Shown here: in pieces, positions 2,693 through 56,205 of the stretch | How positions within the stretch are numbered: the stretch's first letter is position 1 | How the letters are laid out: each line of letters begins with the position of its first letter | From: Thermoanaerobaculia bacterium | GTDB taxonomy: Bacteria > Acidobacteriota > Thermoanaerobaculia > Gp7-AA8 | Assembly (NCBI GenBank): GCA_041750915.1 | Contig: JBGSYJ010000285.1 | Location: forward strand, 848-64,847 | DNA: 64,000 bases | Direction of reading: 5' to 3' | Position numbers and translations under genes: made by a program | The notes under the pieces: model-generated | Told to the model about the DNA's origin: nothing | Database searches by the model: none | The model's input: only the letters and a program-made list of their open reading frames with translations

Positions 2693-2863
2693 TGTCATCC
2701 CGAGCTTGGTTGTGAGGGCGGGAGGGGCGAGGGAACTCCGGCGGTAGTACATCGTTAATTCGTCGGGGGTAGAGTCGACGTATGGGCTCTCCTCGAGGTA
2801 ACTATGTACCATCGCGCGAGGTCCCTCGCCCCTCCCGCCCTCACAACCAAGCTCGGGATGACA
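2693..2863. repeat. MITE-like palindromic element, copy 1 (family with TGTCATCCCGAGC termini)
   Basis: The terminal inverted repeats TGTCATCCCGAGC and GCTCGGGATGACA enclose internal inverted repeats GGGAGGGGCGAGGGA...TAGTACAT and ATGTACCA...TCCCTCGCCCCTCCC. Three more copies lie at 15417, 27652 and 37303. Confidence 0.85.
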
Positions 2864-4084: not shown

Positions 4085-5332
4085 TCATTCGATCGCCGGG
4101 TAGAAGGCGACGAGCAGTACGCCGCAAAGCGCCGCGAATGCAAAGGGTGGAAGGGTGCGGATCAGCAGTGCCCGGCCACCCACCGTTGCAATGACCAGAG
4201 CCTTGAACGCGAGATTCGAGACCGTCGCAATCACGATCATGCGCCATGCCTGATCGACGGCGATCATGCCGTCGCGGGTGAGCTGCGACGCAGACAGGGT
4301 CAGCGCGTCGACGTCGGTCAGACCTGACATCGCTGATACGACGTAGAGTCCCCGATTCCCGAAGTACACTCGCGCCGCCGCAACGGCGACGAGAACCACG
4401 GCGTAAAGCGCGGCAAAGATCAGAGCCGGTTTCAGCTCAGTCGGGTTGTCCTGAGGCGGCATCGATGAATCTTCCCGGCGGCCTGCGAGCCAGAGTCCTG
4501 CGCAGGAGATCAGGTGTGCTGCGAAGAGGATCGCGAGGGGAATGGCCATCGCCCGTGCAGCAGCCGGGGCAACGACCGCCACCTCGGTGGAGACGCGCAC
4601 GATCACGACGGTCGACGCGATCATGATCACGATCGCCGCCGCTCTCACCTGACCCTCCGCGCGCGCAGCGCGTCTCGCATAGCTGAACGTCGTGGCCGTG
4701 CTGGAGATCATGCCCCCGAGAATTCCGCCGAGCACCGTGCCTGCTTTGTCTCCCCAGAATCGGAAGATGATGTAGCCGCCCAGGCTCAGCCCGACGATCA
4801 ACACCACCATCAGCCAGATCTCGCGCAGGTTGAGCACGTCGAACGGTCCGAAATTCGCGTCTGGGAGGACCGGCAGAATGACCAGCGAGATGAGAGCGAA
4901 CTGCATGATCGCGCGGACGTCTCCCTCGCCGAGAGTCGCGACGATCTTGCGTAAACGCGTCTTCGCCTGCAGAAGCACGGCAACCCCGCCGCCCACAGCG
5001 ACGGCAACCGCTGTGGGGCCGACCACGATGAAACATCCGACGACGAACATGAGAAGCAGCGCGACTTCAGTGGTCAGGCCGGGATCATCCGCGCGCAACG
5101 AGGTCGCGATATGTCCTGCGACGACAAGCAGCCCCATCACGATGAAGCCAGCGGCGACGAACCAGACGCTCAGCGGCCCGACGAGCAGCGCGCAGAGCGT
5201 TCCCAGCACTGTTGCGAGTGGGAAGGTGCGCACGCCGGCGAGGGGAGAGTCCACACTCTCGCGCTGCAGCCCGACGAGCAGTCCGAGCCCCAGGGCGATG
5301 CCGAGGTCCGTGAAGATCGTGGCCAGTTCCAT
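4085..5332 (-). CDS. MgtC/SapB family membrane protein with C-terminal DUF4010-like domain
   Basis: The N-terminus MELATIFTDLGIALGLGLLVGLQRE is typical of MgtC/SapB proteins. It is followed by about 12 TM helices. Confidence 0.75.
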   Translation of the reverse strand: MELATIFTDLGIALGLGLLVGLQRESVDSPLAGVRTFPLATVLGTLCALLVGPLSVWFVAAGFIVMGLLVVAGHIATSLRADDPGLTTEVALLLMFVVGCFIVVGPTAVAVAVGGGVAVLLQAKTRLRKIVATLGEGDVRAIMQFALISLVILPVLPDANFGPFDVLNLREIWLMVVLIVGLSLGGYIIFRFWGDKAGTVLGGILGGMISSTATTFSYARRAARAEGQVRAAAIVIMIASTVVIVRVSTEVAVVAPAAARAMAIPLAILFAAHLISCAGLWLAGRREDSSMPPQDNPTELKPALIFAALYAVVLVAVAAARVYFGNRGLYVVSAMSGLTDVDALTLSASQLTRDGMIAVDQAWRMIVIATVSNLAFKALVIATVGGRALLIRTLPPFAFAALCGVLLVAFYPAIE

Positions 5333-13048: not shown

Positions 13049-13225
13049 GTTCTGAGTTCTGCACGCCCACACGAGTTCTGGGTTCTGCACGCCCGGCCCT
13101 CCCACACGAGTTCTGGGTTCTGAGTTCCCACCCTCCCACTCACAGATCACAACTCACAATCTGGAAAGGGGTGGGAGGAAACCCAGAACCCAGAACCGAG
13201 AACCCAGAACCCAGAACCACAACTC
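13049..13225. repeat. long imperfect palindrome built from tandem GTTCTG/GGGTTCTG units
   Basis: GAGTTCTGGGTTCTG repeats and CCCACCCTCCCAC pair with GGGTGGGAGG and CCCAGAACCCAGAAC repeats around a loop containing CACAACTCACAATC. Confidence 0.75.
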
Positions 13226-13836: not shown

Positions 13837-13868
13837 TGTCATCCCGCACAACCAGGCTCGGGATGACA
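13837..13868. repeat. solo hairpin of the TGTCATCCCG family (MITE terminus-like)
   Basis: TGTCATCCCGCACAACCAGGCTCGGGATGACA. Confidence 0.7.
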
Positions 13869-13946
13869 AGCTCGTTCATTTCTTGCCACAATGATCTGTC
13901 CCGCAACCTGGATTATGTCTCCCTCAGCAGTCGTTTCCCCTCAGGA

Positions 13947-15335: not shown

Positions 15336-15416
15336 GCTGCATCAGTCGGAGAATGCTCATCTGCTTCGCGATTAACCTCAACAATCGCACTGCTATCTTC
15401 AGGACTTGTCATCCCG

Positions 15417-15572
15417 AGCAAGCGCGGGCGGGCGGGAGGGGCGAGGGATCTCCGGCGGTAGTACATTCGTGATTCCCGACCCGGCGTCGGTGGTGGAGGC
15501 CGATAGGCAACTATGTACCATCGCCGGAGATCCCTCGCCCCTCCCATCCGCACACCCAGGCTCGGGATGACA
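15417..15572. repeat. MITE-like palindromic element, copy 2
   Basis: Same termini and the same internal GGGAGGGGCGAGGGATCTCCGGCGGTAGTACAT / ATGTACCATCGCCGGAGATCCCTCGCCCCTCCC arms as copy 1. Confidence 0.85.
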
Positions 15573-18504: not shown

Positions 18505-18610
18505 TCGTGCTCTCCCTCTCTCCGCGAAGTCGGGGAGAGGGTGGCGCGCGGCCCCGCCCGATCGTTGGGAACTTGCGAGGTCGTCGCGCGCCGGGAGAGG
18601 GGCGTTGGGG
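18505..18610. repeat. CCCTCTCCC/GGGAGAGGG hairpin-containing repeat element, copy A (inverted relative to copy B at 23693)
   Basis: Contains CTCTCCCTCTCTCCGCGAAGTCGGGGAGAGGGTGGCGCGCG...CGCGCGCCGGGAGAGGGGCGT. Its reverse complement matches 23693-23795 almost base for base. Confidence 0.75.
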
Positions 18611-18744
18611 GCTTGCCGCTTCTCGTGCCGATGGGCTGGATTCGAATTGCCTGCACGGCCCCTCTCCCCGTTCACACGGGGAGAGGGGAATCGGGCCTGC
18701 GTCATTGCCGCCACGCACCCGCCTGTATACTTTTCATCCCTCCC

Positions 18745-23486: not shown

Positions 23487-23580
23487 GAATGTTGAATGTT
23501 GAAATTGTGAATGCTGAATGTTGAATTGGGCACCGGTCTTCATTCACCATTCAAAATTCATAATTTCAACATTCAACATT
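23487..23580. repeat. AT-rich imperfect palindrome (about 40-bp arms) downstream of thrC
   Basis: GAATGTTGAATGTTGAAATTGTGAATG...CATTCAAAATTCATAATTTCAACATTCAACATT sits in an otherwise GC-rich context. It may act as a terminator or protein-binding site. Confidence 0.6.
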
Positions 23581-23692: not shown

Positions 23693-23795
23693 ACGCCCCT
23701 CTCCCGGCGCGCGACGATCTCGGAAATCTCACTACTGCGCGGAGCCCGCGCGCCACCCTCTCCCCGACTTCGCGGGGAGAGGGAGAGCACGGCTG
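23693..23795. repeat. CCCTCTCCC/GGGAGAGGG repeat element, copy B
   Basis: ACGCCCCTCTCCCGGCGCGCGACG...CGCGCGCCACCCTCTCCCCGACTTCGCGGGGAGAGGGAGAGCACGG is the reverse complement of copy A. Confidence 0.75.
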
Positions 23796-25179: not shown

Positions 25180-25208
25180 TGTCATCCTGAGCTGCGCTCA
25201 GGATGACA
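25180..25208. repeat. solo hairpin TGTCATCCTGAGC-TGC-GCTCAGGATGACA
   Basis: A perfect 13-bp inverted repeat that belongs to the same terminus family as the MITE-like element. Confidence 0.7.
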
Positions 25209-27651: not shown

Positions 27652-27823
27652 TGTCATCCCGAGCCTGGTCGTGCGGGCGGGAGGGGCGAGGGACCTCCGG
27701 CGATAGTACATAGTTCATTCGTCTCGGAAAAAGTCGACGTGCGGACTTCTCCTCGAGGCGACTATGTACCAGCGCGTGAGGTCCCTCGCCCCTCCCGCAC
27801 ACCCACGCTTGCTCGGGATGACA
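27652..27823. repeat. MITE-like palindromic element, copy 3
   Basis: Same architecture as copies 1, 2 and 4; it directly abuts the bcp stop. Confidence 0.85.
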
Positions 27824-34718: not shown

Positions 34719-34732
34719 AACGTGGCTATATG

Positions 34733-34912
34733 TGGCAGGGCCTTCCCAGGCCCTGCCTTCTCGGGCAGTGACGTGGTACGAGACTTGGAGCATTCATCCC
34801 TGGTCGTCGCTTCAGAACTCGTACAACCGACAAACACAAAAAAAGGCAGGGCCTCGGAGGGCCCTGCCACGTGGTGAATCCACAAGGCAGGGCCTGGGAA
34901 GGCCCTGCCACA
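34733..34912. repeat. REP-like array: three GGCAGGGCC-N6-GGCCCTGCC hairpins plus a TGGAGCATTCATCC box
   Basis: TGGCAGGGCCTTCCCAGGCCCTGCC, GGCAGGGCCTCGGAGGGCCCTGCC and GGCAGGGCCTGGGAAGGCCCTGCCACA lie between convergent genes. The array is related to the one at 54894. Confidence 0.8.
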
Positions 34913-34919
34913 TGCGAAC

Positions 34920-37175
34920 TTACTGTTTGGTGCGGGTCGCGCGGGCCGGAGCGGGAGCGGGTGCCGCGCTGGTGGTTCCGCCGGACGCCGACTGCGTGTC
35001 CGCCACGAAACCGCGTTTCCGCATCAGCGCTTCGACCTCGGGGTCGCGTCCACGGAATGCTCGGTAGCCTTCCGCCGGATCGATGGTGTTACCCACGGTG
35101 AAGATGTTGTCCCGCAGACGCTGCGAGACTGCGGTGTCGTAGGCGCCCGTTCCTTCAGTGAACGCCTCGTACGCATCTGCCGTCAGCACGTCCGACCAGA
35201 GATAGCTGTAGTAGCCGGCCGAATAGCTGTCGCTCGAGAAGAGGTGGAGGAAGTGCGGAAGTCTGTGCCGCAGCACAATCTCCTCCGGCATGTTCATCTC
35301 CGCCAGAGTCTCCCGCTCGAAGACTGCAGGATCGATCGGGCGATCACCGGCGAGGTGAAGTTTCATGTCGACGAGTGCTGCCGCCAGATACTCAGTCGTT
35401 TCAAAGCCCTGGTTGAATGTGTCAGCACGCTTGATACGATCGACGAGTGTCTGGGGAATCGGCTGTCCGGTTTCATGATGAAGCGCGAACCGCTGAAGTA
35501 CTTCAGGAGTCGAGAGCCAGTGCTCGAGCAGCTGGGAGGGGAACTCGACATAGTCGCGGACCACGGCGGTGCCGGCAAGCGACGGATAGGTCACGTTCGA
35601 CGACAGCCCGTGCAGGGCATGGCCGAACTCGTGAAACAGCGTCGATGCGTCGTCCCATGAGATCAGGACCGGCTCGCCTTCAGCTCCCTTCACGAAGTTC
35701 GAGTTGTTCGACACGATCGTGGTGACGGGCTGATCGAAACGCTCCTGGCTTCTGTATGCGTTCATCCATGCGCCGGATCGTTTGCCTTCCCGCGCGAAGG
35801 GGTCGAAGTACCACAGACCGACGTGGCCCCCGTTGGTCTTGTCTGTGACTTCCCAGACGCGGACTTCGGGGTGAAAGACAGGGACGTTGTCGATGGGGGT
35901 GAAGTTGAAGTTGAACAGCTCGCCCGCGACCCAGAACATGCCGTCCCGGAGGTTGTCGAGCTGGAGGTACTGCTTGACCTCGTTCTGGTCCAGGTCATAG
36001 CGCTCTTTCCGCACTTTCTCGGCGTAGTAGCGGTAGTCCCACGGTTCGATGGTGATGTTCGCCCCTTCCCGGCGGGCGAGGGCCTGCATGTCGGTGACCT
36101 CTTCCTCGACCCTCGCGATCGACGCAGGCCAGACGGCCTCCATCAGCTCGAGAGCCCGCTCGGGAGTTTTCGCCATCGTGTTCTCGACGCGCCAGTGCGC
36201 ATGCGTCTCATACCCGAGGAGTTTCGCGCGCTCTGCGCGGAGCTGAAGGATCTGGCTGATGATCGCGTTATTGTTGTGCGCTCCAGGATTGTCGCCGCGG
36301 TTCACGAAGAGATTGAACGCCTGCTGGCGGAGCTCCCGGTTGTCCGAGTACGTGAGAAACGGATCCATCGATGAGCGGGTGTTGGTGATGACCCACACCT
36401 CGGGCGTTCCCTTGGCGACCGCAGCGCGCTTCGCAGCGTCGCTCACTGACTGAGGCAGCCCAGCGAGATCGGCCTCGCTTTCGATGGACAGGAACTGGTT
36501 GGTCTCGTCAGCGAGCACGTTCTGATTGAACTGTGTGAAGAGGCCTGCGAGCTGCTGGTTGATCTCGGACAGACGGGACTTCGCCGTGCTGTCGAGACGG
36601 GCACCGGCCCGCACGAAGTTGTTGTGATAGACCCAGGCGAGGCGCTGCTGCTCTGGAGTCCAGCTCGACTTCTGCGGCGAGTTGTATACGGCCTCGATGC
36701 GCCTGAAGAGCGGGTCGTTCTGCGTGATCTGATCGGAGAAGGCGGCGAGGCGCGGCTGCATCTCCCGCTCCACGACCTGGAACTCCGGCGAGTTCATGCT
36801 GGTGCTCCAGACTCCGTACGCGGTCCCGACGCGGTCGAGCGTGCGCCCCGCACGCTCCATTGCAATGATCGTGTTCTCGAACGTGGCGGGCTCAGGGTTG
36901 CTGGCGATACGCTGGACGTCCGCGAGGTTCTCGGCCATCGCCGCCTCGAGTGCCGGCTTGAAATCCTCGACGCGTACCGCATCGAATGGTGGAACGCCGC
37001 CGTACGTACCGCCCCACTCGGCGAGCAGCGGGTTGTCACTGGTAGACGCCACAGGCGCCATCACTTCTGGTTCAGCATTCATCGTATTCACGTCCTGGTT
37101 GGTTGCGCATCCGGCGATCACGATAGCCAGGGCTATCACGCCGGAACGGGCGGAGAAGTTTCTCATCAGCTGCAC
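34920..37175 (-). CDS. dcp: peptidyl-dipeptidase Dcp (M3 family), lipoprotein
   Basis: HEFGHALH zinc motif; 751 aa; lipobox-like IAGC. Confidence 0.85.
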   Translation of the reverse strand: MQLMRNFSARSGVIALAIVIAGCATNQDVNTMNAEPEVMAPVASTSDNPLLAEWGGTYGGVPPFDAVRVEDFKPALEAAMAENLADVQRIASNPEPATFENTIIAMERAGRTLDRVGTAYGVWSTSMNSPEFQVVEREMQPRLAAFSDQITQNDPLFRRIEAVYNSPQKSSWTPEQQRLAWVYHNNFVRAGARLDSTAKSRLSEINQQLAGLFTQFNQNVLADETNQFLSIESEADLAGLPQSVSDAAKRAAVAKGTPEVWVITNTRSSMDPFLTYSDNRELRQQAFNLFVNRGDNPGAHNNNAIISQILQLRAERAKLLGYETHAHWRVENTMAKTPERALELMEAVWPASIARVEEEVTDMQALARREGANITIEPWDYRYYAEKVRKERYDLDQNEVKQYLQLDNLRDGMFWVAGELFNFNFTPIDNVPVFHPEVRVWEVTDKTNGGHVGLWYFDPFAREGKRSGAWMNAYRSQERFDQPVTTIVSNNSNFVKGAEGEPVLISWDDASTLFHEFGHALHGLSSNVTYPSLAGTAVVRDYVEFPSQLLEHWLSTPEVLQRFALHHETGQPIPQTLVDRIKRADTFNQGFETTEYLAAALVDMKLHLAGDRPIDPAVFERETLAEMNMPEEIVLRHRLPHFLHLFSSDSYSAGYYSYLWSDVLTADAYEAFTEGTGAYDTAVSQRLRDNIFTVGNTIDPAEGYRAFRGRDPEVEALMRKRGFVADTQSASGGTTSAAPAPAPARATRTKQ

Positions 37176-37302: not shown

Positions 37303-37472
37303 TGTCATCCCGAGCTCGGTTGTGCGGACGGGAGGGGCGAGGGATCTCCGGCGATAGTACATAGTAAATTCGTCACTGGAGAGTCGACGTACGACGTGTT
37401 CTGGAGGCTACTATGTACCATCGCGAGAGATCCCTCGCCCCTCCCGCACACCCACGCTTGCTCGGGATGACA
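37303..37472. repeat. MITE-like palindromic element, copy 4 (with extra half-site CTCGGGATGACA at 37495-37506)
   Basis: Same termini and internal arms as the other copies. Confidence 0.85.
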
Positions 37473-37528
37473 TTCCGCGACTGACTGGAAACCTCTCGGG
37501 ATGACACACTCGACAAAGACTGCGAACC

Positions 37529-38314
37529 TCACCCTCTCCACATTTCCAGGAACGCTCTCACTGTGGCCGGGGCATGGCCGGCGTAATGGTTGTTCACGTA
37601 AACATGAGCCGTCACGCCGCGGTGGGTGATGGTGCGGCAGACGCCGACCCATTCGCGGAGCTCACTCGTCCGATCCTCGACGACCTCGCCCCAGACTTTT
37701 GTCTTCTTTTCGATGCCGTGCCGGTCGCCCAGCAGCCGGATGTAGGTGAAGTCGGCGGTGATCGGATCGAGCTCCAGAAGCTCGGCCGGGCGCGCCATGT
37801 AAGGATGATCGATCAGTGCCAGCGCTACGTTCCTCCCGCGGAGGAGGTCGAGAAATTCCGCACTCAGCCACCAGCGGTTGCGAATCTCGACCGCGATGGG
37901 AAACTCCCTCGGAAGCATGGGGATGAAGTCACTCAGCCGCTGCAGAAATTCGTCCTGGCGGATCTCGCCCTGGCGGAAGTACGGAAACTGGAGCAGGAGC
38001 GGTCCGAGCTTGTCGCGCAGCTCATCGGCCGCCCGGAGGAACTCAGCGAGCTCCGCGTCGCAGTTCCTGAGGAACTTCTCGTGCGTGATGGTTTTCGGGA
38101 ACTTCAGTGCGAATCTGAAATTGTCAGGAGTGCTCTCGTACCACCTGCGAACGGTCGAGATGGCCGGTGTTCCGTAGAAGGAGCTGTCGATCTCGAGCGT
38201 ATCGAAGTGCTGCGCGTAGAACGGCAGCATCGCAGCCGCCGTGATTCCTTCCGGATAGAAGCTGCCCTTCCAGCCTTTTGCAGTGAATGAGCAGGTACCG
38301 ATGCGAAGGGTCAT
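37529..38314 (-). CDS. DUF72 (YecE-like) protein
   Basis: MTLRIGTCSFTAKGWKGSFYP at the N-terminus is typical of DUF72. Confidence 0.8.
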   Translation of the reverse strand: MTLRIGTCSFTAKGWKGSFYPEGITAAAMLPFYAQHFDTLEIDSSFYGTPAISTVRRWYESTPDNFRFALKFPKTITHEKFLRNCDAELAEFLRAADELRDKLGPLLLQFPYFRQGEIRQDEFLQRLSDFIPMLPREFPIAVEIRNRWWLSAEFLDLLRGRNVALALIDHPYMARPAELLELDPITADFTYIRLLGDRHGIEKKTKVWGEVVEDRTSELREWVGVCRTITHRGVTAHVYVNNHYAGHAPATVRAFLEMWRG

Positions 38315-43452: not shown

Positions 43453-43649
<197 letters not shown>

Positions 43650-45721: not shown

Positions 45722-45852
45722 GCAGCATCGCGTCGCAGCTCATTCGCCGTCCCCGAGCAACTCCTGATCGAATCCTGATCTTTCCCTCAGGATTCTGAAC
45801 CCTCCTCTCTCTCAAAGTGTCTCTGAGAAACGAGACAGAGGAGGTCCTTCTG

Positions 45853-48231
45853 ATGCGCAACGTGCCGCTGCTGACTGTCGTGTTCGCAGTTCTTCTCGTC
45901 CAGGGAGCGTCCGCCGCGTCCGAGGGGATGCTCGAAACCGAGCCAGGGGTCGGGATCTACTGGCGAGCTCTCGGCCAGGGCGCCGAGACCGTGATCATCC
46001 CGGGAGATTTTCTCTTCGGCGGTGATATGGACGTTCTCGCAAACGGCCGGCGGGTGGTGCTCTATGACATGCGGAACCGTGGGCGCTCGCGCCGTGTGAC
46101 TGACCCGTCGCTCCTCACGCTCAACGGTGACGTGCGTGACCTCGAAGCTCTCCGGCGAGAGGTGGGGGCCGAGAAATTCTCGACGATCGGGTACTCGGTC
46201 CTGGGCAAGCTGGTCATTCTCTATGCCCTGCAGTATCCCGAGCGCGTGGAGAGAATCGTTCAGATCGGTCCGGTCGGAATGAGATTCGGGGCGGCGATGC
46301 CTCCGGTCTACGACAACACGCGCGAGGACGTCATGGACTCCGATGCGCTTGCCGCTATACGCCAGCTCCGTTCCACCGGCTTTCACGAAACGAATCCGCA
46401 GGAGTATTGCGAGCGGGAGTGGCTCGTCACGCGCGTTCGTCTCGTTGGCGATCCGTCGATGGCGGAAAAGCTGAAGTCCTATTGCGCCATGGAGAACGAG
46501 TGGGCCACCAACTTTGCCTTTCACCTCCAGCATCACTTTGCATCCGCTCGTGAGACGCATGTCAGCCCGGCCGAAGTCCGCGATGTGACGTCTCCGGTTC
46601 TCACGGTGCACGGCACACTCGACAGGAATGCGCCGTATGGTGCGGGGCGCGAATGGGCGGCGACGATACCCGATGCGAGGCTGCTGACCGTGGAGGGTGG
46701 CGCGCATCAGGTGTGGTTGGACGATCCGAAGATTATCGACGAGATCGCCGAGTTTCTCGACGGGTCGTGGCCTGCACGCTCCGAGGATCTCGACATCTCT
46801 TCGGAAGAATGGCTCTCGCAGCTTCGGGGATGGGAGTTGCTCACCAGAGTGCGCGAAGCGACCGATGATGGCGGCGTGGACTTCTCCACATCCCCAGTGA
46901 AAGTCGGGTTCTCAGGAGCCCTCTATCCACATTCCCAGTCGGCGAGGCCGGTTCCGCCCTTCACTCCTTTTCCGACAACGGACGATGTGATTCTCGATCT
47001 CGCATCGAACAGGATCGCTGCACGGCATGAGATGAAATGGCCGAATTTCACTTCGCGGGTCAGGATCGTCGCCAGAGGAGATGAGGGGTTCGAGGTCGCT
47101 GGCGAAAGCTCTCGTGCCTCGACGCTCGGGGTGAGTGCCGACGATCTGCGACTCCGATATATGCGGCGACTTCCGGCAATCCTGATCGAAGAGGCGCTGA
47201 GAGACCCGGCTTCGATCCGTCTTCTCGGAACCCGCGATCTCCGGCGGGACCGCTTCAGCCTTGTGAATGTCGAAGTCGAAGATTCTCGGCTGACGTTGTG
47301 GTTTGATAAGGACGAGAGGCTTACCCGCACGACACGGCTCATTCACGACGGCCTGCTGGGCGACGTGCTCGAGGAGACGATCTATTCATCCGAAGAGTCC
47401 TCGCGTGGATGGCCGCGGCGCGTTCAGGTCTTCTTCAACCGCACGCTGGCGGCCGAGTTCGCGGTCCAGACGCGCGAAGCGCCGAACGCTGAAGAACTGC
47501 GCCAGGCGTTCGAGCTTCCCGCGGAGGGTCTTTCTCCGGCAAGTGCAAGCGAGCCGCTCGACATCCGCAGACTCGCAGATCGTGTCTGGCTCGTAACGGG
47601 GATCGGTGGGCGCGACTACCGCAGTCTCGTCGTCGAGCGGGACGACGCCCTGCTTCTTGGTGAAACGCCGCTCAGCAGGGAGGCGATGGAATCAGTTCTC
47701 GATCTTCTCTCGAAGCATTTTCCGGATAAGTCTGTACGAACTGCCGTGGTCACGCACCATCACTTCGATCACGCAGGCGGGGTGACGGCGCTCATGCGGG
47801 CCGGTGCGAAGATCGTGACGGCGCCGGGGAATGCGGCGTTCTTCCGCGAGATCGCAGCTGCACCTCGGACGATCGACGGAGGTTCCCGAATTCCGCGCGT
47901 GGAACTGGAGCTCGTGCTCGAGGATCGGATCGCTCTCCCGGGCTCCGGCCCGGCCGTCGAGGTGCATCGGATCGAAGCCGCGGGCCACGCGGAAGAAATG
48001 CTCTTTCTCTGGCTCCCGAAAGAACGGATTCTATTTCAGGGAGATCTGTTCGTGCACTTTCCTGACGCGCCCGAAAGAGCGAGGCCGCAGGCGGTCTCGC
48101 TCCTCGAGAGCGTCACAAGCCGATCGCTGCCCGTGGACCGGATCGTCGGTGTTCATGGAGAAGTTGCCACGCTCGACGATCTCCGGAGGGCGGTAGAGCG
48201 AGCGGGTAGGCCAGGAGTGCCTGGCCAGTAA
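45853..48231 (+). CDS. secreted alpha/beta-hydrolase fused to metallo-beta-lactamase-fold domain
   Basis: The signal peptide follows a GAGGAGG ribosome-binding site. Nucleophile elbow GYSVLG in the N-terminal ~300 aa; MBL motif VVTHHHFDHAGG (HxHxDH) in the C-terminal ~250 aa. Confidence 0.7.
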   Translation: MRNVPLLTVVFAVLLVQGASAASEGMLETEPGVGIYWRALGQGAETVIIPGDFLFGGDMDVLANGRRVVLYDMRNRGRSRRVTDPSLLTLNGDVRDLEALRREVGAEKFSTIGYSVLGKLVILYALQYPERVERIVQIGPVGMRFGAAMPPVYDNTREDVMDSDALAAIRQLRSTGFHETNPQEYCEREWLVTRVRLVGDPSMAEKLKSYCAMENEWATNFAFHLQHHFASARETHVSPAEVRDVTSPVLTVHGTLDRNAPYGAGREWAATIPDARLLTVEGGAHQVWLDDPKIIDEIAEFLDGSWPARSEDLDISSEEWLSQLRGWELLTRVREATDDGGVDFSTSPVKVGFSGALYPHSQSARPVPPFTPFPTTDDVILDLASNRIAARHEMKWPNFTSRVRIVARGDEGFEVAGESSRASTLGVSADDLRLRYMRRLPAILIEEALRDPASIRLLGTRDLRRDRFSLVNVEVEDSRLTLWFDKDERLTRTTRLIHDGLLGDVLEETIYSSEESSRGWPRRVQVFFNRTLAAEFAVQTREAPNAEELRQAFELPAEGLSPASASEPLDIRRLADRVWLVTGIGGRDYRSLVVERDDALLLGETPLSREAMESVLDLLSKHFPDKSVRTAVVTHHHFDHAGGVTALMRAGAKIVTAPGNAAFFREIAAAPRTIDGGSRIPRVELELVLEDRIALPGSGPAVEVHRIEAAGHAEEMLFLWLPKERILFQGDLFVHFPDAPERARPQAVSLLESVTSRSLPVDRIVGVHGEVATLDDLRRAVERAGRPGVPGQ

Positions 48232-48428: not shown

Positions 48429-48625
48429 GGACTGGAGCTGCCCCAATGGCTGCCCGGCTGAAGCTGCGACCCCGACGCTTTCTTAGGCGACGGCTTACCG
48501 GACTGGAGCTGCGACCCCGACGGCTTACCGACGGCTTACCGCCGACGGCTTACCGGACTGAAGCTGCGACCCCGACGGCTTACCGCGCCGACGGCTTACC
48601 GCGACCCGACGGCTTACCGGATCCC
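48429..48625. repeat. nested tandem repeat array (CGACGGCTTACCG x7; GGACTGRAGCTGCGACCCCGAC x3)
   Basis: Read directly in the intergenic region between convergent genes. The units and gaps are too short and irregular for a CRISPR array. Confidence 0.8.
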
Positions 48626-48690: not shown

Positions 48691-50442
48691 TCAGTACCCG
48701 AGAATCAGCTCGATGCGCCGGTTCCTCGCGCGGCCCTCCGCGCTGTCGTTCTCGGAGATCGGCACCAGCTCACCGCGCCCTATGCTTGTGATGCGCGCGG
48801 GATCGATGCCGGCTGTGACGAGCAGATCCCTGAGGCCATCCGCGCGGGCCTGAGACAACTGCAGGTTGTCGTCTTCGCCCCCGCTCGAGTCGGTGTGACC
48901 CTCGATGGCGACTCGGACGTCGGGGTTCGCCGCCAGTTGCTCGGCAATCCGTTGCAGAACACCGCGGCTCTCCCAGCTGATCTGGCTCCGTCCGGTTCTG
49001 TAGAAGAGCCCTGGAATCGTCACGACCAATCCCCGCGCCTCGAAGCGTGCTTCGACGACCGCTGCGAGCGACCGCTGGATCGATGCAAGACGTTCCTGCT
49101 GGCTCGTACGCCGCTGGCGCTCCTCTCGCACTTTAGCCAGCTCTCCTTCGGCCGTCGTCACCCGCTCTCGCAGTTTCCTGCTCTCCGCGCTGGTTCCGCT
49201 CAGGGTCACGCTGACGTCTGCGAGAAGCTTCCTGTATGAGTCTTCGAGATCCCTGCGAAGACGTTCGCCCTCATCCCGTTCGCCCCGCAGCCGCTCGTTC
49301 TCGATTTCGCGCTCCGTCAAGGCACGCGAGACCGCCACGAACTGCGTACGCTCCTGAGCCAGGGTCTGCTCGAGCCGGACGACCTCCGGATGCTTCGATG
49401 GTTCGACCGCGGCCGCGACTGTGGTGAGGACGATTCCCGCGGGAACCCTCAAGACGAGTACGGCCAGCAGGAATCCAATGGTGGCCATTGCCACCCGCAT
49501 GCGGCGGGCACGAAGCAGGCCGGCGAATGCAGGCTTCCGTTTGCCCGGAGTAGCGATCGATGCAGCCTCGAAGAGGTCGAGCGCCAGATCGCGTGCCGAA
49601 TCGTAACGCTGCTCGCGATCCTTGGCGAGGCATCGATCAAGGATGCGTTGAAGCATCGCGTTGAGGCGCGAGCCGCCGACAGAGATTCGGGGAGCTGGCC
49701 GATGAACGATGTTGTGCATCGTTTCCGCATTCGTCGAACCGGCAAAGGGAGCCTGCCCGGTTATCGACTCGTGGATGATGCATCCGAGCGAGAAAATGTC
49801 GGTTCGGTGATCAAGCGCAAAGCCTTCGATCTGCTCAGGCGACATGTAGCCGACTGTTCCCAGCAGTGTTGACGGCTCGGTGAGCGTCCTTCGTCCCGAG
49901 GGGGATCGCACCTCGTCGCTATGCTGCACGCCCACCAGTTTTGCGACGCCGAAGTCGAGGACTTTCGCATGGCCCTCGGACGTGATCATGATGTTGTCGG
50001 GCTTGAGGTCGCGATGGACGATCCCTCGCGCATGCGCCTTGCCGAGCCCTTCGGCGACGCGGCCCAGCTCTGCAAGCGTCGACGCGAGCGGAGGCTCCTC
50101 CCCCAGCCAGACATCGAGCGTTGCTCCCTCGATGTACTCCATTGCAATGTAATGGATCACCGAAACGTGGCCCGACGCGTCGACGACCGGCGCTTCACCC
50201 ATCTCGTAGATCGTCACGATCGAAGGATGATTCAGAGCGGAGGCAGCTTTCGCTTCAGTGATGAAGCGTTGCACGCGGAGAGGATCGGACGTGAGACCCG
50301 TCGGCAGAATCTTGATGGCGACGAGTCGGTCGAGCTCGACGTCGAGGGCAAGGTAGACCTCGCCCATGCCACCGGCGCCCAGAAGCTTCCGGATCTGGTA
50401 GCGTCCGACGGACGACTCTTCCGCTAACGATGGCCCGGTCAT
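48691..50442 (-). CDS. Ser/Thr protein kinase fused via TM segment and coiled coil to a C-terminal OmpA/MotB-like peptidoglycan-binding domain
   Basis: Kinase motifs GAGGMGEVY, HRDLKPDNIM and DFGVAKL; a central TM helix; C-terminal OmpA-C-like block VAIEGHTDSSG...RNRRIELIL. Strong GGGAGGAG ribosome-binding site. Confidence 0.8.
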   Translation of the reverse strand: MTGPSLAEESSVGRYQIRKLLGAGGMGEVYLALDVELDRLVAIKILPTGLTSDPLRVQRFITEAKAASALNHPSIVTIYEMGEAPVVDASGHVSVIHYIAMEYIEGATLDVWLGEEPPLASTLAELGRVAEGLGKAHARGIVHRDLKPDNIMITSEGHAKVLDFGVAKLVGVQHSDEVRSPSGRRTLTEPSTLLGTVGYMSPEQIEGFALDHRTDIFSLGCIIHESITGQAPFAGSTNAETMHNIVHRPAPRISVGGSRLNAMLQRILDRCLAKDREQRYDSARDLALDLFEAASIATPGKRKPAFAGLLRARRMRVAMATIGFLLAVLVLRVPAGIVLTTVAAAVEPSKHPEVVRLEQTLAQERTQFVAVSRALTEREIENERLRGERDEGERLRRDLEDSYRKLLADVSVTLSGTSAESRKLRERVTTAEGELAKVREERQRRTSQQERLASIQRSLAAVVEARFEARGLVVTIPGLFYRTGRSQISWESRGVLQRIAEQLAANPDVRVAIEGHTDSSGGEDDNLQLSQARADGLRDLLVTAGIDPARITSIGRGELVPISENDSAEGRARNRRIELILGY

Positions 50443-50547
50443 GAGTGGCAGTTCTCCTCCCGAGTACGGATCTCCGACTTACAGGTTGCGCGAAGCGCGG
50501 GCAGAAGTCATAGGAGTGGCGGAGTGTTTGAAGCTTTGTTGCAGGAA

Positions 50548-50757
50548 GTAGACAGGAGACAGTAGACAGTAGACAGTAGACAGGAGACAGTAGACAGTAG
50601 ACAGGAGACAGTAGCCCACCCGCCCCGGGTACTGGCTCGCTCCTCCGGCGTTCCAGCTGGCAGGGAAGGCTTTACAGCAAACTGCGTCTCCCGACGGGTG
50701 TGTTCGCTGAAGGGACGGGCGGGCTACTGTCTCCTGTCTACTGTGTACTGTCTACTC
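50548..50757. repeat. composite 7-mer inverted repeat, copy 2 ((GTAGACAG)n...82-bp spacer...(TACTGTC)n)
   Basis: Same architecture and the same GCCC(A/G)CCCGCCC / GGGCGGGC junctions as copy 1. Confidence 0.85.
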
Positions 50758-51407: not shown

Positions 51408-51476
51408 CGGCTTTATCCTCTCCGCCGTCGCCGTCGCCGCAAAATTGTGGCAACTCAAGCAACGGGTGTCATCCTG

Positions 51477-51553
51477 AGCGTTAGCGAAGGATCCCCCCAG
51501 GGTTTGCGACACAGCCAGTAGTGAGGGGATCCTTCGCTGCGCTCAGGATGACA
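51477..51553. repeat. hairpin element with TGTCATCCTGAGCG termini and CGAAGGATCCCC inner arms
   Basis: GTGTCATCCTGAGCGTTAGCGAAGGATCCCC...GGGGATCCTTCGCTGCGCTCAGGATGACAC. Confidence 0.75.
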
Positions 51554-51588
51554 CTTGCTCGAACCCGGTCCCACTCACAACTCAGAAC

Positions 51589-52554
<966 letters not shown>

Positions 52555-54889: not shown

Positions 54890-54893
54890 GCAT

Positions 54894-55044
54894 GTGGCAG
54901 GGCCCTCCGAGGCCCTGCCTTGTCTGAATAGTAAGGATGAATGCAGTTGGAGCATTCATCCAGCCGCGTCAGTCAGAGCTCCAGCCAGGTGTCGTACATC
55001 TTCACTGCTCGCCGAGGCAGGGCCTCGGAGGGCCCTGCCACATG
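54894..55044. repeat. REP-like array (GTGGCAGGGCCCTCCGAGGCCCTGCC ... TGGAGCATTCATCC ... GGCAGGGCCTCGGAGGGCCCTGCCACATG)
   Basis: Same family as the array at 34733-34912. Confidence 0.8.
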
Positions 55045-55060
55045 GCGCTACAATCTGCTG

Positions 55061-56080
55061 ATGCCGGCGACGATTGAATCCTTCCTGCCCGAGGAGGAGG
55101 GTGCTTCTTTCTACGAGCTGGTTACATCTGATACTCAGCGGACCGCTTCAACCATCCGTCAACTGGCAAACCGCGGCCCCGTCCGCCTCTTCGTGGCGAT
55201 CGGCGAGACGGGTCCCGTCGCGCGACTCGTCACGCAAATCTCACCGGCGTATCGCGATGGCGAGGGCAACCCGCTCGGTCTCATAGGATTCTTCGACGCA
55301 CAGAACGACCCGGATGCGGTGTCTGAGCTCTTTGACGCCGCGGCGGCCACGCTCCGGCAATATGGCTCCCGTAAGATGATCGGGCCGATCGACGGCGACA
55401 CGTGGCACCGATACCGGGTCAATGCGGGGCCGTTCGAGACACCTCCCTTTCTCCTCGAGCCGTGGAATCCGCCTTACTACGCTGAACTGTGGGAACGCTC
55501 GGGATTCACGATTCTCGAGACGTACTCATCGAGACGCATCGATGATGTGGAGCCTGTGGCCGAGCGACTGTCAGAGAAATTCGCCAGCGCACGAAATGGC
55601 GGCTACGTCTTCGAGCCCTTCGATCGAAGCGACTTTCAGCGGACACTCGAGCGCATCTACAGGCTGTCGCTCGAGATCTTCCGCGACAACTATCTGTACT
55701 CGGACATTTCGTTCGACGACTTCTGCTCGCTCTATTACGGAGCCGATCGGCTCATCGAGGACGATTCCATCTGGTTCGCGAGGGCGCCTGACGGCAGCGA
55801 CGCAGGCTTCGCGTTCACCTATCCCAACCGCACGCCGAAGGACCCGCACGGCGATGCGTTGAACTTCAAGACCCTCGGAGTTCTGCCCGCTCACCGCCGC
55901 GGTGGCACCGGCGCCGCCCTGATGTTCTGTGGTTACGAGGCGGGACTGCGAAGGGGCTTTCAGGCTGTGAATCACTGCCTGATGCGCGCGGGCAACCCAT
56001 CCGAGAAGCTCGACTCAGGTCACGGGAAACCATTCCGCGAGTATTTTCTCTACGAGAGGGCGGTGAAGAGTGAAGGGTGA
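55061..56080 (+). CDS. GNAT-fold acyltransferase-like protein (FemAB/BioF2-like or N-acyl amino acid synthase-like)
   Basis: C-terminal LGVLPAHRRGGTGAALM resembles GNAT motif A. No Shine-Dalgarno sequence precedes the start, and the family assignment is tentative. Confidence 0.45.
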   Translation: MPATIESFLPEEEGASFYELVTSDTQRTASTIRQLANRGPVRLFVAIGETGPVARLVTQISPAYRDGEGNPLGLIGFFDAQNDPDAVSELFDAAAATLRQYGSRKMIGPIDGDTWHRYRVNAGPFETPPFLLEPWNPPYYAELWERSGFTILETYSSRRIDDVEPVAERLSEKFASARNGGYVFEPFDRSDFQRTLERIYRLSLEIFRDNYLYSDISFDDFCSLYYGADRLIEDDSIWFARAPDGSDAGFAFTYPNRTPKDPHGDALNFKTLGVLPAHRRGGTGAALMFCGYEAGLRRGFQAVNHCLMRAGNPSEKLDSGHGKPFREYFLYERAVKSEG

Positions 56081-56101
56081 AAGTGAAGAGTGAAAAAGGG
56101 G

Positions 56102-56205
56102 CCCTCACCCCTGACCCCTCTCCCGCCGGGAGAGGGGAACCACCGCCCGTGCACGAGGGGTGGCGATGCCCCTCTCCCGACGGGAGAGGGGTCAGGGGTG
56201 AGGGA
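56102..56205. promoter_or_regulatory. nested GC-rich palindrome overlapping the Shine-Dalgarno sequence of the downstream ligase gene
   Basis: Outer arms CCCTCACCCCTGACCCCTCTCCCG / CGGGAGAGGGGTCAGGGGTGAGGG enclose two CCCCTCTCCCG-N-CGGGAGAGGGG hairpins and a CCACC...GGTGG centre. The 3' arm ends in GAGGGAG 6 nt before the ATG at 56211. Confidence 0.6.

Follow-up and report, generated by a model that had tools for sequence, protein, structure and literature searches.

The locus considered here, a 64,000-nt stretch from a Thermoanaerobaculia bacterium (contig JBGSYJ010000285.1, positions 848 to 64,847; hereafter the window), contains four copies of a palindrome of about 170 bp, and it raises the question of what kind of repeat this is and how it could have spread. 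The window is ordinary chromosome with 61% GC, coding for isocitrate lyase, malate synthase, kinases, peptidases and a GGDEF/EAL protein. The palindrome had been described, from the letters alone, as resembling a miniature inverted-repeat transposable element (MITE). The analysis reported here leads to a different placement: the element is better classed with the repetitive extragenic palindromes (REPs) and their composite forms, the bacterial interspersed mosaic elements (BIMEs) and the REP doublets forming hairpins (REPINs), than with the classical transposon-derived MITEs. It is probably a dispersed, non-coding palindromic repeat of the REPIN/BIME type, built as an inverted pair of modules of about 60 nt around a spacer of about 50 nt that is free to vary.

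The four copies are not a chance pattern. The terminus TGTCATCCCGAGC, which is 13 nt long, was searched together with its complement, and gave 17 matches in the window at up to two mismatches, against 3.4 ± 1.9 in shuffled sequences, none of which (0/100) reached 17; eight perfect matches combine into four full copies. The aligned copies have a mean column identity of 85%, and an nhmmer search of the window with a profile of nine copies recovered exactly these four, with 149-166 bits on the plus strand and 118-126 bits on the minus strand, the plus orientation being the best match in each case. The copies and the blocks of the first one are as follows.

2693-2863, plus strand: full copy 1, subfamily 1; its two arms, both of type a, form a perfect 42-bp inverted repeat.
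Left blocks of copy 1: terminus 2693-2705, a segment 2706-2718, box CGGGAGGGGCGAGGGA 2719-2734, inner stem 2736-2752.
Centre and right blocks of copy 1: centre 2753-2803, inner' 2804-2821, box' 2822-2837, a' 2838-2850, terminus' 2851-2863.
15407-15572, plus strand: full copy 2, subfamily 2; arms b..a' and a different centre.
27652-27823, plus strand: full copy 3, subfamily 1; arms a..b'.
37303-37472, plus strand: full copy 4, subfamily 1; arms a..b'.

The positions given in the original prediction were mostly right, except that copy 2 begins at 15407 and not at 15417, and that the third of the short relatives described below spans 51467-51553, not a hairpin at 51477. The element measures 166-172 bp, its ends are perfect 13-nt inverted repeats, and a full copy is predicted to fold as a hairpin with a stem of about 80 bp; for copy 1 the folding energy is -140.4 kcal/mol (z -17.6) on one strand and -129.1 kcal/mol (z -16.7) on the opposite one. 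The same pseudo-ORF, M-Y-[HY]-R-x-R-S-L-A-P-P...L-G-M-T, is indeed found on both strands, as first noticed; every forward frame is interrupted by a stop in 9/9 copies, and frames spanning the whole element on the reverse strand exist in some copies only, the frame differing among those, so the element is non-coding.

Members of the family also exist outside the window. In the metagenome-assembled genome (MAG) of Thermoanaerobaculia bacterium JTS-RE153 (JBGTDX01), whose loci are cited below by L numbers, the internal box was matched at least 11 times, in 10 stretches. Similarity between the window and these loci is confined to the elements, and the window belongs to another genome; a tblastn search with 12 window proteins found no relative in the 10 MAG loci, so the window and MAG copies are not orthologous, and synteny between them was ruled out. 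In 582 kb of metagenome loci carrying relatives of the window's ThiF protein (42-49% identical) the terminus occurred once and the box never; since the box is absent there and copies are present in JBGTDX01, the family is lineage-restricted but not window-restricted. Logan contigs encoding the exact flanking proteins break inside or at the elements, as expected of a repeated palindrome. A search with a chimeric pseudo-protein made of six arm reading frames gave one match (P0001), which included the right-hand extension described below.

How the element is built can be read from the pattern of its conservation. Divergence had been placed in the central loop, and the centre is the most variable block (46-73% pairwise identity), but a segment of 13-14 nt, located between the terminus and the G-rich box in each arm, varies as well (65-76%); identity is 89-95% in the box CGGGAGGGGCGAGGGA with the inner stem and 98-100% in the termini. 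Two versions of this arm segment exist, a (YYGGTYGTGNGGG) and b (RAGCGYGGGYGKG), and they are combined as a..b' in the copies at 27652 and 37303 and in L001 and L002, as b..a' in the copy at 15407 and in L003, L004 and L009, and as a..a' only at 2693. The two subfamilies differ in their centres and do not sort by genome: the copy at 27652 is 89% identical to L001, compared with 87% and 84% to its window siblings. The L009 copy (4196-4364) has the arm types and right extension of the copy at 15407-15572, with the central ~60 nt inverted, which is the outcome expected of recombination between inverted arms, and the palindrome seems to exist as flip isomers. Six of the nine canonical G-quadruplex motifs of the window fall in the arms of the four copies.

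G-quadruplex motifs in arms: 2716-2733; 2823-2840, minus strand; 15426-15441; 27675-27692; 27783-27804, minus strand; 37432-37453, minus strand.

The five complete MAG copies carry such a motif in all 10 arms; therefore, whichever strand is considered, the G-quadruplex motif lies in the 5' arm and its C-rich partner in the 3' arm.

The feature that would best account for this anatomy is a small stem-loop unit. The original prediction distinguished the shared termini from a second, internal inverted repeat; on sequence comparison the two apparently belong to a single stem, of which the terminus would form the 5' half and the second repeat the 3' half. The unit, written as TGTCATCCYGAGC, consists of a tag (C/T)GTC, a stem half AT[C/T]C[C/T]-GA-GC, a loop and the returning half GC-GA-[R]G[R]AT, and the fold predicted for its short form is (((((..((...))..))))). 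The short relatives have a G-N-A loop in which any base can stand at N. Over all units, GAGC and GCGA are separated by 3 to 28 nt; in the 170-bp element the insert between them measures 21 nt (22 nt in one MAG copy) and is rich in G-tracts. If the a/b segment is part of the unit loop, this would explain why it varies between a terminus and a GCGAGGGA box that are both nearly invariant. The shorter hairpins reported at 13837, 25180 and, with the corrected start, 51467 proved to be true relatives, and they are listed here with the further units and extensions of the window.

13837-13868, plus strand: internally deleted derivative of subfamily 2, in which the left terminus is cut after TGTCATCCCG and fused to CACAACCAGGCTCGGGATGACA.
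13869-13902, plus strand: conserved right-hand extension AGCTCGTTCATTTCTTGCCACAATGATCTGTCC, 95% identical to L003 5098-5156 and aligned in six more copies.
15366-15406 (start approximate), plus strand: conserved left-hand extension (..TTCGCGATTAACCTCAACAATCGCACTGCTATCTTCAGGACT), aligned with the left flanks of L001, L006, L010 and copy 1.
25180-25208, no strand assigned: minimal palindrome of two T-variant termini TGTCATCCTGAGC with a 3-nt loop between them.
37494-37506, minus strand: extra solo right terminus TCTCGGGATGACA, 22 nt outside copy 4, a layout also found after the L004, L006 and L009 copies.
51467-51553, no strand assigned: short "T-type" dimer, an 87-nt hairpin of two inverted units TGTCATCCTGAGCGNAGCGAAGGATCCCC with a spacer of ~30 nt and an interior unlike that of the full copies.

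The derivative at 13837-13868 (repeat family D5) matches copy 2 at its right end with 93% identity, its junction, as read from the sequence, falls at a CCCG microhomology, and it is located 22 nt past the stop of a GNAT acetyltransferase gene. The minimal palindrome sits between a PilZ gene (minus strand) and a CitMHS transporter gene (plus strand), and the 87-nt dimer between the 3' ends of a DUF1287 gene (plus strand) and a transketolase-like E1 beta gene (minus strand).

Covariation within the unit supports its stem. All 15 units chosen only on a C in the terminus (ATCCC) carry G, not A, in the partner (GGGAT), and among units whose halves were not fixed by the search pattern the combinations were TCCC/GGGA in 38, TCCT/AGGA in 20, TTCT/AGAA in 11, TTCC/GGAA in five and TGCT/AGCA in three. 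Mismatched combinations were nearly all singletons; the recurrent exception, TCCC/AGCG with nine cases, seems to have been produced by lazy pattern matching. The unit is also found far from the window: the 25-mer GTCATCCTGAGCGNAGCGAAGGATC, with 24 specified bases, has 76 exact matches in 64 IMG/VR contigs (loci L095-L158) of 43-70% GC and with unrelated flanks, in part as inverted pairs and in part as solo units. Three plasmids (loci L277-L279) carry it as well, namely those of Granulicella tundricola (Acidobacteriota; a solo unit with a CGTC tag), Gloeothece verrucosa (Cyanobacteriota; a solo unit) and Phocaeicola massiliensis (Bacteroidota; a heterodimer with one arm ATTCT/AGAAT). Units of the window, the MAG and the viral contigs have the TGTC form of the tag, that of Granulicella the CGTC form. 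No recurring neighbour gene was found beside the 25-nt units in the viral contigs, where the clusters reflect related phages only.

The features that define REPs can thus be set against the element. A short tagged palindromic unit is present as such in the short relatives, and in the 170-bp arms by homology only; inverted dimers that fold as one hairpin, heterodimers and linker mosaics are all present, and the nine full copies lie outside genes, in convergent or co-directional contexts. The element is most likely a selfish repeat tolerated in 3' regions, where it is probably transcribed.

A classical MITE would be a deleted derivative of a DDE-type insertion sequence (IS), moved via its 13-nt ends by a parent transposase encoded elsewhere in the genome. 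The MITE label captured several true properties: the element is small, non-coding and multi-copy, has inverted-repeat ends and occupies non-orthologous sites in at least two genomes, and its perfect 13-nt ends are common to at least three size classes with different interiors, as in families served by a single transposase. However, target-site duplications were found at the palindrome ends in none of the nine full copies (0/9) and the two flanks are not direct repeats of one another. The palindrome is not a clean boundary, and the bases outside it are conserved among copies instead of being specific to each: the left extension (..CTCAACAATCGCGCGGCGATCTTCAGGACT, with ..ATCTTCAGGACT just outside the end) and the right-hand flank AGCTCGTTCATTTCTCGCCACAATGATCTGTCC recur in several copies, the flank consensus over the nine copies is ..RRNCT on the left and mostly AGCTCG.. 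on the right, and extra solo right termini stand 20-45 nt further out at 37494 in the window and in L004, L006 and L009.

In L006 (1-153) and L007 (4116-4262) the right termini of two different copies pass at the identical base, GCT^CGGGATGACA, into one and the same sequence, TCTAATGAACCTCCTGAACC. This sequence supplies the 3' end of an ORF with the last residues ..YYEERYRERLVKSLQKKATTLGYQLIPVQEVH*, and each contig stops at that point. This abutting gene tail favours a MITE, and the junction may represent a site-specific insertion into the terminus; the 13 nt TCTAATGAACCTC seen at it also bound the left extension in L001 and L006. Against a MITE stand the lack of a parent IS or transposase beside the copies or anywhere else in the 64-kb window and the 10 MAG loci, the abundance of solo units, and the covariation of the terminus with its partner in the same arm, for which a terminal inverted repeat bound by protein as duplex would have no need. 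The conserved outer flanks, the missing duplications, the missing IS and the anatomy of a REP dimer or BIME together leave the MITE label unsupported, and a classical MITE is an unlikely explanation of the family.

The position of the copies bears on a second alternative, namely that the element serves the host at gene ends, as a terminator, an insulator or a 3' hairpin stabilizing the mRNA, and was spread by duplication or gene conversion. The intergenic placement first proposed for all four window copies is borne out by their Pfam-supported neighbours.

Copy 1, both neighbours on the minus strand: dodecin gene with its stop at 2900 (37 nt away) and ThiF gene with its start at 2645 (48 nt away).
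Copy 2, convergent neighbours: sulfotransferase gene (plus strand, ends 15335) and M14 peptidase gene (minus strand, stop 15616).
Copy 3, convergent neighbours: AhpC/TSA gene (plus strand, ends 27634) and 5'-3' exonuclease gene (minus strand, stop 27863).
Copy 4, both neighbours on the minus strand: DUF72 gene with its stop at 37529 (57 nt away) and M3 peptidase gene with its start at 37175 (128 nt away).

The distance to a stop codon is 10-85 nt for every copy, and for the nine copies with both neighbours identified the arrangement is convergent in four, co-directional in five and divergent in none; if a quarter of all sites were divergent, the chance of the last count would be 0.75^9 = 0.075, a figure that comes from a small sample. 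This location past stop codons, with 4/9 copies between convergent genes, agrees with a host function, and so do the extreme stability of the fold on both strands, which fits a block acting in two directions, and the far stronger conservation of the arm blocks compared with the centre. Yet the same location bias is general among REPs, which are reported mainly between unidirectional or convergent ORFs, and which may form inverted dimers, often heterodimers, with spacers of 20-100 bp and one large stem-loop (Di Nocera, De Gregorio and Rocco 2013, PMC3733652). Moreover, the element is absent from most window genes, and its orientation relative to the upstream gene is mixed in the co-directional cases (four antisense, one sense). 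It is not a canonical terminator either, since no U-tract follows the hairpin; a terminator scan gave no call at the outer ends of copies 3 and 4, and what it marked near copies 1 and 2 were short stems arising by chance, distinct from the element hairpin. A host cis-element is thus quite unlikely to be the basis of the family.

A third possibility, a structured RNA gene or a landing pad for the site-specific integration of other mobile elements, could draw on the very stable fold, on a sigma-70-like site (ATGACA-18 nt-CACAAT) that a promoter scan placed across the terminus and right extension, and on the foreign sequence shared by L006 and L007 at GCT^, but it is very unlikely, given that both arms are symmetrically conserved, that the promoter-like site is directed into the 3' end of the convergent gene in 4/6 copies with an intact extension, that the ORF tail at the L006/L007 junction has no family match and no homologue, and that Rfam 15 gave no match in the window at gathering thresholds, its best scores coming only from generic models of miRNA precursors (at most 67 bits, with gathering at 168). 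Some narrower candidates were also rejected: the right extension as an outward promoter for genes, as the orientation is correct in only 2/6 copies, and an attC site, a CRISPR repeat, an Xer site, a group II intron or a ribozyme, whose core motifs are absent from the sequence. A search of the open literature with sequence strings and pseudo-peptides returned nothing relevant, and the family was found described under no name.

Taking the element as a REPIN/BIME-type repeat, its history could be reconstructed along these lines. Each module would be an expanded copy of the small tagged stem-loop unit, with the 21-nt G-tract-rich insert in its loop, and the family has come to occupy unrelated intergenic positions in the genomes of at least two Thermoanaerobaculia. 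Propagation would have occurred in trans, by an enzyme recognising the unit stem-loop on single-stranded DNA and probably of the HUH type resembling the REP-associated tyrosine transposases (RAYTs), which would leave no target duplication. Copies would then persist only where they are harmless, just 3' of genes, and be co-transcribed into the 3' untranslated region; there, the RNA duplex of ~80 bp may act as a barrier to 3' exonucleases or as a substrate of RNase III, besides imposing a leaky block on transcription.

Several observations weigh against this account. Mobility is inferred from the dispersed distribution, and no empty site was seen: the metagenome scan with ThiF recovered only proteins 42-49% identical, at loci lacking the element, and look-ups of exact flanking proteins gave either Logan contigs that break in the element or no result. 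No unit had a transposase of any type as its neighbour. All four window copies have one orientation, with the right extension of the 13837 derivative on the same side, and in the MAG loci the orientation relative to GC skew is not significant. Covariation along the long hairpin is sparse (5/50 pairs), and in a single 170-bp arm the local stem-loop is not thermodynamically favoured (z from -0.04 to +1.3), so that the arm stem-loop of the long form rests on homology with the short units. Finally, a RAYT search of 2.4 Mb of loci, with IS608 TnpA and Escherichia coli RAYT as queries, gave one weak RAYT-like ORF, on the phage-like contig L202 (1000-2200 and 2700-2900, flanking repeats included; Y1_Tnp, 17.7 bits with a cut-off of 23); this degenerate ORF is flanked by GTAG-tagged REPs GTAGCGCAGGCTTCAGCCTGTGG, and was discarded as a candidate mobiliser for that difference in REP type.

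The same L202 contig also holds a TGTC-type unit, so that both REP superfamilies occur together on it. As a separate lead, a small gene encoded in L004 (7671-8000, minus strand), presumably of the YhbQ/UPF0213 type and assigned to GIY-YIG by Pfam, terminates at a distance of 10 nt from a 170-bp copy; as a second GIY-YIG gene near units is absent from the 2.4 Mb of loci, the association was dropped and is probably a coincidence.

The occurrence of the unit in plasmids and viral contigs invites a broader and, in our estimate, improbable reading, in which the TGTC-tagged stem-loop would be a cross-phylum superfamily with strict covariation within the unit, no associated transposase and a mechanism of spread or maintenance not yet described. 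If this were so, the unit could be spread by a new enzyme acting on single-strand DNA, or have a conserved DNA-level function for host or phage, and the 170-bp form of Thermoanaerobaculia would be a lineage-specific elaboration, whose loop insert would place a G-quadruplex motif in the 5' arm of the single-stranded strand and might create a switch between hairpin and quadruplex. In any case, a giant palindrome specific to one lineage is tied here to a small unit recurring across phyla and phage-like contigs, and the question of how REPs lacking a RAYT spread can be approached with this family, a substrate that is defined in sequence and covaries clearly in structure, when candidate enzymes are tested. 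Palindromic repeats of this kind also matter for the annotation of Thermoanaerobaculia genomes, because they break short-read assemblies, create spurious ORFs and can alter the stability of mRNA 3' ends.

Other repeats are present in the same window, and the genome is rich in several unrelated palindromic repeats. Intergenic tandem arrays of heptamers (AGTAGAC, GAATGTT, ACTCACA and others) often form inverted pairs around a core of ~90-110 nt; like arrays flank short hairpin units in the MAG (L010, with GACGAAT on both sides, and L002), and in the viral contigs L168, L204 and L207 an array of CGCTGGT follows the units. These arrays look like a second repeat class associated with hairpins, and those at 51573-51605 come after the 51467-51553 dimer.

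43453-43506 and 43602-43649; 50547-50614 and 50724-50756; 23487-23526 and 23541-23580: pairs of heptamer arrays.
13108-13218, 51573-51605 and 56063-56124: further heptamer arrays.
18513-18544, 18659-18690, 23755-23786 and 56108-56139: short hairpin repeats of a first further family, CCCCTCTCCCCG..CGGGGAGAGGGG.
34730-34762, 34844-34915, 54892-54924 and 55015-55045: short hairpin repeats of a second further family, AGGCAGGGCCnnnnnGGCCCTGCC.
48443-48619: tandem repeat of a 30-nt unit CGACGGCTTACCGGACTGGAGCTGCGACCC, present about 3.4 times in the gap between two convergent genes, 45817-48231 and 48691-50442.

As regards known repeat systems, the Correia/NEMIS, ERIC and RUP elements are, like the one described here, small, non-coding, bounded by inverted repeats, multi-copy, intergenic and co-transcribed, with long RNA hairpins. 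They differ in having target-site duplications (TA for Correia) and, for several of them, a parent IS, neither of which was found here. A second comparison can be made within the Acidobacteria, where, as in the Planctomycetes, the class 3 TnpA-Y1 genes are flanked by structures such as CAGAGCCGCGACCGTTAGGGAGCG; for Solibacter usitatus, about 600 copies are reported (Quentin et al. 2018, PMC6006769). Both these structures and the present unit have a stem, a two-base G-A/G-A internal loop, a 2-bp stem and a small loop, the published fold being ((((..((....))..)))), both contain C-n-G-A-G-C, and both reach high copy number in an acidobacterial genome. The stem sequences, however, differ, and CnGA is an unpaired 5' foot there and lies inside the stem here; no class 3 TnpA-Y1 gene was seen near any copy.

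The unit can further be compared with the CGTC-tagged REPs, which also allow a TGTC tag, have stems starting with A-T and no known transposase, and include dRS3 of Neisseria and RPE-4 and RPE-6 of Rickettsia (PMC3733652). The units described here share with them the (C/T)GTC tag (CGTC, TGTC or CCTC being admitted there) placed right before a stem that starts A-T and ends ..AT-C, a stem length of 9 nt, the occurrence as single units, inverted dimers and heterodimers downstream of genes, the lack of an associated transposase, and a translation of the type V-I-x-x-x-x-x-[DI], which is VILSEAKD here and VIPAKAGI in R. conorii. They depart from the published stem of 8-9 bp, loop of 4-5 nt and tail of about CCA in that two of the nine stem positions are G-A mismatches, forming a tandem G-A/G-A internal loop, in that the loop is 3 nt (GNA) or 21 nt, and in that the tail is C-Y-N (C-[CT]-N). 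Acidobacteria are not included among the phyla that the 2013 paper reports for the superfamily. The unit thus resembles this superfamily, on a comparison with its published description, and strict membership is not claimed because loop length and tail differ.

At the level of the whole element, the comparison is with REPINs and BIMEs. Unlike these, the element has no GTAG tag, and no RAYT was found in the window; known REP doublets, moreover, are about 100 bp long, so that this element of ~170 bp is larger. Like them, it is an inverted doublet with a variable spacer that folds as one hairpin, extragenic and without target duplication, and, as in the BIMEs of E. coli, its arm types a and b are mostly heterodimeric, in the manner of the Y and Z REPs, and are accompanied by mosaics of linkers and extra units.

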